In this document: piece after piece, positions 1 to 3,000 of the stretch | How positions within the stretch are numbered: the stretch's first letter is position 1 | How the letters are laid out: each line of letters opens with the position of its first letter | Virus record (IMG/VR): IMGVR_UViG_2541047500_000008 | Strand: one strand, 5' to 3' | Source: a virus | Taxonomy: Duplodnaviria > Heunggongvirae > Uroviricota > Caudoviricetes | DNA: 5,642 nt | Position numbers: made by a program

Positions 1-3000
1 ATCCCGCCCACGTTTTGCAGCCAGGGTCCAGGCTGATGAATGAGCTTCTCCGGGTTTATCTTCGGTCATACTGTTGCAGTGCCACAGCGAGCCCCCCCAC
101 GTCACCGTATCGCCGGGGTGGTAGGTTTCACCGGCTCTGAACACACCACGGTAGAGCATCACCGGCAGGGAAAATGTTTTTTCCGTACGCTGGCCACTGC
201 TCTGCCGGACCACCACAGAGAACGACCGTTCACCCGTCATGCTGACGTCAATATCCGCCACCCCGTCAACCAGGCATTCCCATCCCCGCATCCCGTACGT
301 TTTTTCATACGCCCGCCAGAGTCCACCCTGGTGTGTGGCATACGAGCCCCGGGGAAAGGATTTTTGATCGTCAATGGCGGGGAGTATTTCCAGTGCCGTG
401 GCATCACGCCCGTCCTGCGGAGCCGGCAGGGCACTCACCGCCTCCAGAACCGCCTTCTGCAGAACATCCGGATCGTAGTCACGACCATCACGCGGAACAG
501 GAATATGGCTTACCGCCTCCTTCACCATCTGTTCAAGCATCGGATGCACATCATCCGGAGTGATACTTTTGCCGTCTGCCGGTACCGGAATATTCGCAAC
601 CGCATCATTCACCGCCTTCTGCAGAACATCCGGATCGTAGTCACGACCGTCGCGCGGAACAGGAATATGGCTCACTGCCTCTTTCACCATCTGCTCAAGC
701 ATCGGACGCACATCATCACCCGTCACGCACTTCTGTAATACCACAGACTGAGAAGCCAGTTTTTCTTCAAACGTTTGTGCCTGCGCGGCTATTTTCTCCT
801 CAAATGTACGCTGTAAATCCGCCAGCACCATGGCGAATTCTTCGCCCAGTGCACGAATAATGGACAGTTCCCGTTCCGTCATTTTCGCAGTATCCCCCTG
901 AACATCGCTTTCACCGCATCATGCTCTGTTTCACTGATTGCCTTATTACCGTCAGATGCGCCATCAGGCAGTTGTGCTGAGACTGTTTTCCCGGACGACG
1001 CGAACGGATCCTCACGGGCATCACGACGGGACAGCGCCTCCAGACTGTAGTTCTGCTGCTGAAGATACAGTGCATCACCGCCGGCCAGGGGCGGCAGGTT
1101 CTCACGTTTACGGGCCTCATTGGGCGTCAGCAGCGTATTTTTCACCGACTCACCCAGCGTTTTCATGCGCCGTTCGCTGTCCATTCTCAGCAGCGTGGTG
1201 ACGTCAAACTCCGTGCTCTCGTTTTCCCCCGTTTCCAGCGCCTCATCCAGTAACAGCTCAATGGACTCAATCAGCGTCTGCAGACACTGGGAATAATACT
1301 GCTGCTCCAGCGCCTCCACGTTATCACTGGAGGGAGGTTGTCCCACACCAATCTTGTAGGCCGGGACACGGAACACCGAACAGACAATTTCAGCGGTCAT
1401 TTTCAGTTGTTCCACCGTCTGCGCATCCACCGGTGAAAACGTCGTGGGGTTATATTTCGCCCCGTTGCTCAGAATCGCCGTTTTCCCCGCATTTTCGCCG
1501 GTATACCCGCTGTCCCAGTTGCTCTTCAGTTTTTTCGCATTTTCTTCCGTAATACTGCCGGGGATCTCAATCACCCCGGACGGCCTGCCGCCATTTCTGA
1601 AAAAAGACGTTGAATTTGCCTGAATATGATACCCCTGCGTGGCAGCCAGCCCGGCAGCATACACCGGCGGCAGCCCCACAAGCGGATGAAAAAAACAGTT
1701 AAACCGGTCGTGGATCACTTCCCGGGCAGGCACCGTCACCGCCTCCGTGATCCCGCAGTTCCGGTCCGGCGTGATGCGATAGAACACCTCGCCGTCATCC
1801 GCCACCAGAGGTTCAACCCGGCTCCAGTCCAGAATACGCAGTTCTTTGATCTGCCCACGGGAGTTACGGATTTTCAGCACCACCGTATTGCCGTGACGCA
1901 GTTTGGCGTTCAGCCACAGTTCAAAAAACTGGATACGATTCTGCTGTGCATTGGGACGACGACAGAGACGGGCAATATCCCCCTGCCGTTTTTCACGGCG
2001 GATCCCCTGTGTATCGGTCTGCATCAGGCGCAGCCGCATTTTGGCGATATCCTGGGATATCAGCGAAATGCAAGAAAACACCGCATGAAAGGAGAGGACA
2101 CTTTCCGGATCGGCTTTCACTCCCTGCTGCCAGGCACCGGCAAAAGGCTCAGCCACCGCCTGAAACAGGCTGGTCCAGCCCACCTCTTTTACATCACGTC
2201 CTGATTTCTGGTTTTTTCGGGGTCGCCGCAAAAGGTTCCACATTCGCCATGCTCCGCATCACGTTTCTTTTTCTGACCTGCCGGACGTCGCGCTGTGATG
2301 TACTCCGCCTTCCCCAGGCGAACCAGCACCTCCGCACACGGCTGTGCCACATCACGGATATCCCCGGCCCGGGCATCATGCGTGCCCTGCAGATACTGGA
2401 TTTTTGCCATCAGTTACTGCGGGAAGCTAGCGCCTCCCGCCCTCCTCATCAGACTCAGCCGCCGGACGCAGTTCCGTAGTTCACACCGGTGATCACAGCC
2501 ACCGCCGCGGTACGGCGACGACGCCAGTTGATCCAGCGCTCCGCACGGATGGCCACGCTGCCGGTCTGGAACATGGAGACCAGCTCCACCGGTGACGGTG
2601 TGCTGCTGTCGCTGGTCGGTTCAGACTGCATCTCCAGTGACGCTTCACGGGACATATCCACCGCCACACCACCGTCATCCGCCAGATAAATATCCGGCGC
2701 ATTCACCAGTACCAGCTGGTCACCCACATACTGGGAGACAATCACCGGCAGCCCCTGGAAGGTCCCGCCCAGCAGGGTCATGTCCGGATATTCCTTCTGC
2801 CCCAGCGCATTTTTACGCATGGACAGCGCCAGGGCATTCGTGCTGGACATCAGCCAGACCGCACCGGTGGGCTGCAGATTTGCCGTCACAAACTGGCCAA
2901 ACGCGGCCTCGGCATCCGCATCCGGATTACCGCTTGACGCCGTGCCCTTCACATCATGGGTGATGGACGCAGGGGAGACATCTGCCACCGCCGCTTTTTT

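Follow-up and report, generated by a model that had tools for sequence, protein, structure and literature searches.

What kind of protein is encoded immediately downstream of the portal gene in the head module of an HK97-type prophage? The question is raised by a stretch of 5,642 nucleotides (nt) from the IMG/VR virus record IMGVR_UViG_2541047500_000008 (Caudoviricetes), hereafter the window, whose minus strand carries such a module, from a lambdoid prophage of a kind that is frequent in Shiga-toxin-producing Escherichia coli. The open reading frame (ORF) in question, ORF2, occupies positions 1..882 of the minus strand, overlaps the portal stop codon with its start, and has its 3' end cut by the window edge. 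It is left out of the ORF list of the window solely because its frame runs past the window end.

In this study, we compared ORF2 with its relatives in phages, prophages, and protein and structure databases. The data describe a separate gene whose product has a predicted N-terminal helix, a repetitive stalk, and a C-terminal domain that resembles the family 5 and 12 carbohydrate-binding modules (CBM5/12). The interpretation that we favor, with confidence slightly short of even, is that this independent late gene of the HK97-type head module encodes a trimeric, glycan-binding accessory fiber of the portal vertex.

ORF2 is a protein-coding gene

An earlier note on the window had pointed to an unlisted minus-strand frame of 294 codons without a stop. 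Translation of positions 882 to 1 indeed gives 294 sense codons and no stop codon. What lies beyond position 1, which the same note had asked about, can be judged from close relatives: five further residues (AGGGK) and then a stop, which in relatives overlaps the start of the connector gene. By our own estimate, based on a stop-codon frequency of 3 in 64, the chance expectation for 294 open codons is ~1e-6. ORF2 has 1625 homologues at E<=1e-3, and the median ratio of nonsynonymous to synonymous substitution rates (dN/dS) in its C-terminal domain is 0.19 (1102 pairs, 52 distinct E. coli-type alleles). For these reasons, ORF2 is no chance reading frame, and it is under purifying selection.

Complete ORF2 relatives span 245-569 amino acids (aa), and stand-alone homologues of 245-402 aa have been called in many genera. 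The protein matches PHROG families 1289, 2271, 8767 and 16748; searches of NCBIfam gave no meaningful family.

Two genes at the portal junction

The junction is an ATGA overlap (879..882, minus strand), in which the ORF2 ATG (882-880) lies on the portal stop TGA (881-879). Overlapping stop/start geometry of this kind is usually taken as a sign of translational coupling. The proposal that ORF2 is a separate coding sequence (CDS) coupled to the portal gene is thus supported by a 4-nt overlap, whose geometry suggests that ribosomes may pass from one gene to the other by termination-reinitiation.

An identical AAATGA overlap was found in 17 of 17 cross-genus genome loci (Pantoea, Atlantibacter, Kluyvera, Kosakonia, Enterobacter, Phytobacter, Citrobacter, Buttiauxella, and others) and in 39 of 39 further IMG/VR loci, i.e., in 56 of 56 non-E. 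coli loci. The N-terminus M-N/T-E-R-E-L-S of ORF2 is conserved in the 17 cross-genus loci. In Pseudomonas, Marinobacter, Haliea, and Morganella, the two genes share 14-17 nt and their relative frame is a different one; distant lineages start ORF2 with TTG, GTG, or ATG, and the N-terminus is conserved from its first residue. An independent start (ATG, GTG, or TTG) is kept in all non-E. coli loci examined, and the relative frame is not conserved. No conserved slippery sequence was found at the junction in the 17 cross-genus loci, where the position of a G tract present in E. coli reads AGAGGA. The relative frame, the starts, the conserved N-terminus, and the missing slippery site together indicate that two genes with an overlapping stop and start are the ancestral and general state. 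On these sequence comparisons, the two-gene form appears to be not only ancestral but selected, and the portal reading of ORF2 in databases appears to be wrong.

That database reading would make ORF2 the C-terminal part of a long portal protein, with the window copy being either a frameshifted pseudogene or the product of programmed -1 frameshifting at the G tract. It draws on the PGAP annotation, which lays one 2.26-kb pseudogene labeled 'phage portal protein, frameshifted' over both frames of the split form (in loci L001 and L002 and in public records generally), on PHROG 2271, an 859-position 'portal protein' profile that spans portal and ORF2, and on the existence of fused alleles; in addition, GGGGG followed by the rare codon ATA could permit some P-site slippage. 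Many G5 alleles, however, have ATT in place of ATA, and outside E. coli neither a G tract nor another conserved slippery site occurs in the 17 cross-genus loci. The portal ORF alone (454 aa) fills the whole HK97 portal model, covering positions 2-343 of 343 of TIGR01537 (portal_HK97; E=3e-106) and positions 2-321 of 321 of PF04860, and no portal domain was matched in ORF2 in Pfam or NCBIfam. Furthermore, each of the 126 non-E. coli loci has two genes with a start at the junction, distant lineages have another relative frame, and ORF2 homologues stand alone (245-402 aa) in many genera. We consider ORF2 as a piece of the portal protein very improbable. Programmed ribosomal frameshifting into a C-terminal extension was rejected on the absence of a conserved slippery site, the independent starts, and the variable frame; the two-gene state, together with the frame and slippery-site data, largely refutes the pseudogene or programmed-frameshift reading as a general explanation. 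In databases, homologues that stand alone go by 'phage portal protein' or 'phage gp6-like head-tail connector protein', although they contain neither of these domains; the 'portal protein' name comes from fused alleles.

G tracts and portal fusion in E. coli

The G tract lies in the last portal codons (AGG GGG; 894..898, minus strand) and was followed in 78 distinct E. coli-type sequences, to which type of locus it is limited, AGAGGA being found elsewhere. In its five-G form (G5), the tract looks like a Shine-Dalgarno sequence and precedes the ORF2 ATG by 11 nt. The portal of G5 alleles terminates in FRGILRK, and ORF2 begins at ATGA; with six G (G6), the portal reads ...FRGDTEKMTEREL... in frame directly into ORF2. 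The G5 state was found in 54 of the 78 sequences (50 with intact ORF2) and G6 in the other 24 (20 intact). For example, phage 2851, which is reportedly viable, and phage YYZ-2008 have fused proteins (859 and 861 aa), and BP-4795 and Salmonella phage FSL SP-016 have two genes. G6 occurs on several flanking haplotypes, and two haplotypes defined by +/-200 nt exist as both G5 and G6, so the change is either recurrent or partly due to sequencing errors. Recurrent mutation could operate here as a switch, with some of the cases due to sequencing errors.

No portal-ORF2 fusion was found in 126 non-E. coli loci (the 17 and 39 mentioned above and 70 described below). Among E. coli genomes with any match to bases 1-1000 of the window, the median is 4 places per genome; with several module copies per genome, fused alleles may be complemented in trans, and their occurrence is therefore no proof that the fusion functions. 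Speculatively, the prohead protease could trim the fused extension while the retained ATG yields free ORF2 product. One library representative of 1237 aa (P0143) contains the portal, ~20 helix/LPxPEPLPDI repeats, and the C-terminal domain in a single ORF, and could be either a genuine fusion or the result of an error in frame.

A second homopolymer, G7, lies in the W-G-G codons of the second CBM5/12-like module (92..98, minus strand) and is a hot spot for frameshifts. Loss of one G, which truncates ORF2, was seen in 4 of 119 relatives; locus L001 has G6 at this tract and a truncated 271-aa product, and P0013 is likewise an ORF2 product with a truncated end. The G7 tract would be expected to mutate more readily, and its shortening in only 4 of 119 relatives thus indicates that truncation of ORF2 is selected against and that portal fusion is tolerated.

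A C-terminal domain with two CBM5/12-like modules

Residues 160-294 (1..405, minus strand) form a conserved beta-rich C-terminal domain. The two segments that the earlier note had compared with each other are GSYATHQGGLWRAYEKTYGMRGW (residues 179-201, nt 280-348) and GETYHPGDTVTWGGSLWHCNSM (residues 251-272, nt 67-132), with AWTL at residues 284-287 (nt 22-33). Their relationship was recovered by hhalign, which pairs exactly those segments when the halves of a 96-sequence alignment are compared (P=7e-4), and both modules have the same hairpin-plus-strand pattern in an AlphaFold2 model of the domain (96 diverse sequences; ten strands; predicted local distance difference test score, pLDDT, 95.8). 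All on the minus strand, the first module comprises residues ~175-205 (SFPRGSYATHQGGLWRAYEKTYGMRGWECLV; 268..360; model strands 22-25, 28-37, and 40-46), a beta-hairpin insert follows at residues ~206-243 (154..267; model strands 49-56, 61-68, and 73-79), and the second module comprises residues ~244-290 (YRGVFRAGETYHPGDTVTWGGSLWHCNSM...AWTLAAK; 13..153).

The suggested likeness to small carbohydrate-binding modules was corroborated at the level of predicted fold and sequence signature, with scores near the threshold. As in CBM5/12, the module is predicted to be a compact three-stranded antiparallel beta fold of ~45-60 residues. Y254, W262, W267, and W285 are invariant in 27 homologues and align with aromatic positions of chitin-binding domains. 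Orthologues scored 28.1 (P0027), 25.1 (P0090), 21.4, and 20.9 with the Pfam model CBM_5_12 (PF02839), and some family members carry a precomputed PF02839 label. When searched against PDB sequences, a family profile retrieved the CBM12 of chitin deacetylase, chitin-binding domains of chitinases, and Anabaena All3316 (E=0.0014-0.24); a single-sequence search gave one weak match, to All3316, an injection-system protein (E=0.15). Neighbors of the domain model in BFVD were annotated as collagen triple-helix repeat, ChiC_BD, CBM family 5/12, tail fiber, and minor tail protein (36 matches, E<=1e-3), and the PHROG tail-fiber family 26419 gave a weak match over the full domain (E=1.3e-4).

Known CBM5/CBM12 modules (PF02839), which bind chitin or cellulose, include those of Serratia ChiB, Streptomyces ChiC (2d49), Erwinia EGZ (1aiw), and Bacillus ChiA1 (1ed7) and the tandem CBM12 of a Vibrio chitin deacetylase (4ny2). 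The ORF2 modules differ in that they sit on a phage head-module protein rather than on a glycoside hydrolase, are split by a three-strand insert of ~40 residues, and include a first module too divergent for Pfam.

The domain is widespread. In a library of 1.84 billion proteins it was found in 5096 clusters (50% identity) at E<=1e-3, nearly always as the C-terminal part of a protein 200-550 aa long, and it is 50-65% identical across Enterobacterales, Pseudomonas, Marinobacter, and Haliea.

Helix, stalk, and the possibility of an assembly factor

Residues 1-50 (MTERELSIIRALGEEF...; 733..882, minus strand) include a conserved helix predicted at positions 3-50, in which M1, E3, R4, E5, S7, E15, F16, and F27 are invariant in 27 homologues. 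The segment presumably serves for anchoring or oligomerization. It is followed by an acidic stalk (isoelectric point 4.6) at residues 51-159 (406..732, minus strand), made of four units, each with an amphipathic helix and an (I/L)P-x-P-x-DG-x-(D/S) motif. Helices are predicted at 55-71, 84-96, 109-125, and 138-151, with low-confidence linkers between them. A full-length AlphaFold2 model (mean pLDDT 63.9, stalk below 50) is not reliable for the stalk or the oligomer.

The repeat region that the earlier note had mentioned corresponds to a 119-nt direct repeat with copies at 437..555 and 599..717 (minus strand), which are 90% identical and 162 nt (54 aa) apart. Tandem Repeats Finder reported nothing in positions 1-1000, the repeat having fewer than two copies. 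The lengths of E. coli ORF2 proteins step by 54 aa (245, 299, 353, 407, 461, and 569), with 1-7 repeats among near-identical phages, and outside E. coli lengths reach 556 aa or more.

These properties bear on the possibility that ORF2 encodes a morphogenetic factor absent from the virion, i.e., a portal-associated chaperone or scaffold that would nucleate or size the (often prolate) prohead and be removed by the prohead protease. The N-terminal two-thirds of the protein are largely helical and acidic, as in scaffolding proteins, the gene lies in the head-assembly block between portal and head-tail connector, and it accompanies its portal clade almost without exception. Phages with the ORF2 module have elongated heads (PMC8065619; PMC12029490), which would also fit. 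However, a stalk of 1-7 repeats among near-identical E. coli phages is hard to square with sizing, the best-conserved part of the protein is a carbohydrate-binding-type knob of a kind common to tail fibers, and relatives have collagen stalks. We therefore regard an assembly factor as quite improbable. A narrower version, ORF2 as a head-length ruler, was rejected on the repeat numbers.

Collagen-stalked relatives and the portal clade

In 80 of 150 family representatives, at least 3 consecutive G-X-Y triplets occur within the 25 residues before the C-terminal domain, and in 44 of the 150 such triplets occur after it. Tracts of up to 49 triplets are present in some representatives. The N-termini of these collagen-type representatives resemble those of the portal-adjacent members of the Pseudomonas type. 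A direct link is provided by locus L201, in which a member with more than 100 G-X-Y triplets (2793-4346) directly follows a portal that matches the window portal at E=6e-111.

Conversely, we collected loci by portal similarity alone and kept the 70 hits with enough downstream sequence. The C-terminal domain was present in 67 of these, overlapping or abutting the portal stop in 66 and fused to the portal in none, with G-X-Y runs of up to 65 consecutive triplets. Co-occurrence of ~96% indicates that ORF2 is a regular partner of this portal clade and no sporadic insertion. Portal-adjacent relatives with 30-65 consecutive triplets were found in L301, L310, L344, L351, and L356, as well as in L201. 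Three portal-clade loci (L298, L345, and L352) have no ORF2-like domain downstream of the portal, and in L302 such a domain lies 1.6 kb further on, not at the portal. When collagen-rich relatives were used as queries, mostly unrelated collagen repeats were retrieved, and only L201 and L208 carried the domain. The window protein itself has no collagen G-X-Y run, only isolated DG-R/K-D motifs.

The collagen stalks of relatives, the repetitive stalk of the window protein, and the carbohydrate-binding-type knob together indicate the build of a phage fiber. Since collagen forms triple helices, collagen-stalked members would be trimers, and the ORF2 product is presumably trimeric as well. The earlier note had proposed a surface-exposed head fiber, decoration, or tail fiber-like protein. 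The fiber-like part of this proposal has gained from the repetitive stalk, the collagen relatives, and the fiber neighbors in BFVD, whereas a place on the head, as a decoration, or at the surface is still presumptive. The same plan of anchor, stalk, and knob is found in CBM5/12-headed fibers with collagen stalks (BFVD models; Agrobacterium phage 7-7-1, 9rkv; Pseudomonas phage Pa193 gp47, 9b45). The genes for those fibers are located in tail or baseplate modules, whereas ORF2 directly follows and overlaps the portal gene; and the window protein has helix/proline units instead of collagen, real G-X-Y tracts being found in its relatives.

A gene directly after the portal and coupled to it could also encode an internal, portal-tethered head protein, in the position of SPP1 gp7 or Mu F. 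Within the capsid, the helix would bind the portal crown; the thin stalk would leave together with the DNA via portal and tail channel, as would the small beta modules, and the knob would then bind the chitin-like glycan strands of peptidoglycan, or DNA, to aid genome delivery. Near-universal presence with the portal clade speaks for such a role, as do the frequent and mostly intact portal fusions of E. coli, the distant 1237-aa fusion P0143, and the conservation of the knob across hosts, which would fit a ligand that is universal, e.g., peptidoglycan. For domains fused to portal or MuF proteins, packaging and injection are the published interpretation (PMC5512222); like SPP1 gp7, Mu F, and these fused effectors, ORF2 lies directly downstream of the portal, is occasionally fused, and combines N-terminal attachment with a C-terminal 'payload'. 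That payload, however, is a carbohydrate-binding-type fiber knob and not an enzyme or toxin, and ORF2 fusions are confined to the E. coli G-tract variant plus rare cases. The MuF domain (PF04233) had no match in ORF2 at E<=10 in Pfam and none in PHROGs, and neither Phage_Mu_F/SPP1 gp7 nor any other internal-protein family was matched in Pfam, PHROGs, or NCBIfam. A covalently fused copy could not be ejected; O157 genomes have several module copies (median 4 places), so trans complementation of fused alleles is possible; and none of the 126 non-E. coli loci is fused. Portal-adjacent relatives, moreover, have collagen-like stalks of 30-65 or more triplets, which, to our knowledge, are found in external fibers and decoration proteins and not among capsid contents. 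On balance, we consider an internal protein unlikely.

Other features of the window

From 5' to 3' on the minus strand, the window contains a partial large terminase gene (4455-5639), a protease/major-capsid fusion gene (4391-2455), a conserved 73-aa ORF (2410-2189), the portal gene (879..2243; 454 aa and complete without ORF2), and ORF2. In relatives, ORF2 is followed by genes for head-tail connector, head closure, gp10-like protein, tail completion, major tail protein, chaperones, and tape measure. Window bases 1-1000 match 1250 E. coli records with up to 98.4% identity, and the region matches 93 phage records, chiefly Stx1a, Stx2c, and Stx2a converting phages.

The 73-aa ORF belongs to PHROG 829 (E=1.4e-38), a family of unknown function; it shares 55 nt with the start of the portal gene and is called hypothetical in relatives. 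Compared with L001 and phage 2851, the protease/major-capsid gene has a 1-nt deletion near 3390 (GTGGGC to GTGGC, gene position ~1002), which splits it into ORFs 3168-4391 and 2455-3249; either the window copy is a defective prophage or the deleted base is a sequencing error. On the plus strand, an antisense ORF (40-738; 232 aa, rich in Arg and His) had no family match in Pfam or PHROGs. It was treated as spurious and probably just reflects codon bias on the other strand. In Escherichia phage vB_EcoS_phi330 (L108), at least two short CDSs stand in place of the portal gene, of ORF2, and of each of several tail genes, which suggests many indel errors in the deposited sequence.

Discussion

The reading that we tentatively favor, a glycan-binding accessory fiber of the portal vertex, could work as follows. 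ORF2 would be translated by reinitiation after termination at the ATGA overlap with the portal gene. The conserved N-terminal helix may anchor or oligomerize the fiber, and the stalk would vary in length, being built here from four helix/Pro-x-Pro-x-DG units with a 54-aa repeat and in relatives from a collagen G-X-Y triple helix. The C-terminal knob would consist of two CBM5/12-like modules around the beta-hairpin insert and may bind a conserved glycan via putatively exposed aromatic residues, thereby raising virion attachment. As an accessory adhesin, it could be located at the portal vertex or in the neck region. We infer its presence in the virion, its external position, and its carbohydrate ligand from this architecture and from its relatives.

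Several points weigh against this interpretation. No virion proteomics, structure, or genetics for any ORF2 family member was found in the searchable literature or in PDB sequences. The match of the window protein to PF02839 (residues 249-271, 21.3 bits, E=2.8e-4) is below the gathering cut-off of 26.2. For a receptor-binding tip, the C-terminal domain shows an unusual degree of conservation, and presence in 96% of the portal clade suggests a core component more than an adhesin that is optional. E. coli sequences often have ORF2 fused in frame to the portal (24 of 78 distinct sequences, with ORF2 intact in 20). Finally, portal C-termini lie in the crown inside the capsid, which fits an external fiber awkwardly.

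T4 fibritin (wac), the phi29 head fiber gp8.5, and SPP1 gp12 are examples of head or neck accessory proteins that are fibrous or trimeric, distinct from tail fibers, and encoded in head modules. They are adhesins of a dispensable or auxiliary kind, and a collagen motif is present in SPP1 gp12. Pfam, PHROGs, PDB, and structure searches detected no relationship of ORF2 to these three proteins in sequence or fold, and we know of no CBM5/12 knob or portal-coupled translation in any of them.

A possible, if rather unlikely, combination of claims would place ORF2 in a previously undescribed class of portal-bound fibers that act at the portal or pass through it. The crown would serve as the tether of a trimeric stalk, either helical or collagen, with the CBM5/12-like knob stored in the capsid lumen or channel, and on infection the knob would be released first and grip peptidoglycan. 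Alternatively within this joint reading, such proteins would be new external fibers of the portal vertex and near-obligatory partners of one large portal clade. The G5/G6 tract would switch the E. coli virion between tethered and free forms.

Phage fibers with CBM5/12 tips are already known. What is new here is the fixed position overlapping the portal stop and the near-universal link to one portal clade. New as well are the interchange of helical/proline and collagen stalks, the G-tract switch to covalent portal fusion, and a systematic misannotation. We found no experimental characterization of the ORF2 family in the searchable literature, and PDB sequence and profile searches found no solved structure of a member.

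Of the copies of this head module in E. coli, more than half bear the label of a frameshifted portal pseudogene, and this mislabeling affects calls of prophage intactness for Shiga-toxin phages. The G5/G6 switch offers natural paired genotypes. Overall, a very large domain family poses a testable question, i.e., what sits at the portal vertex of these phages and how they first contact the cell envelope.

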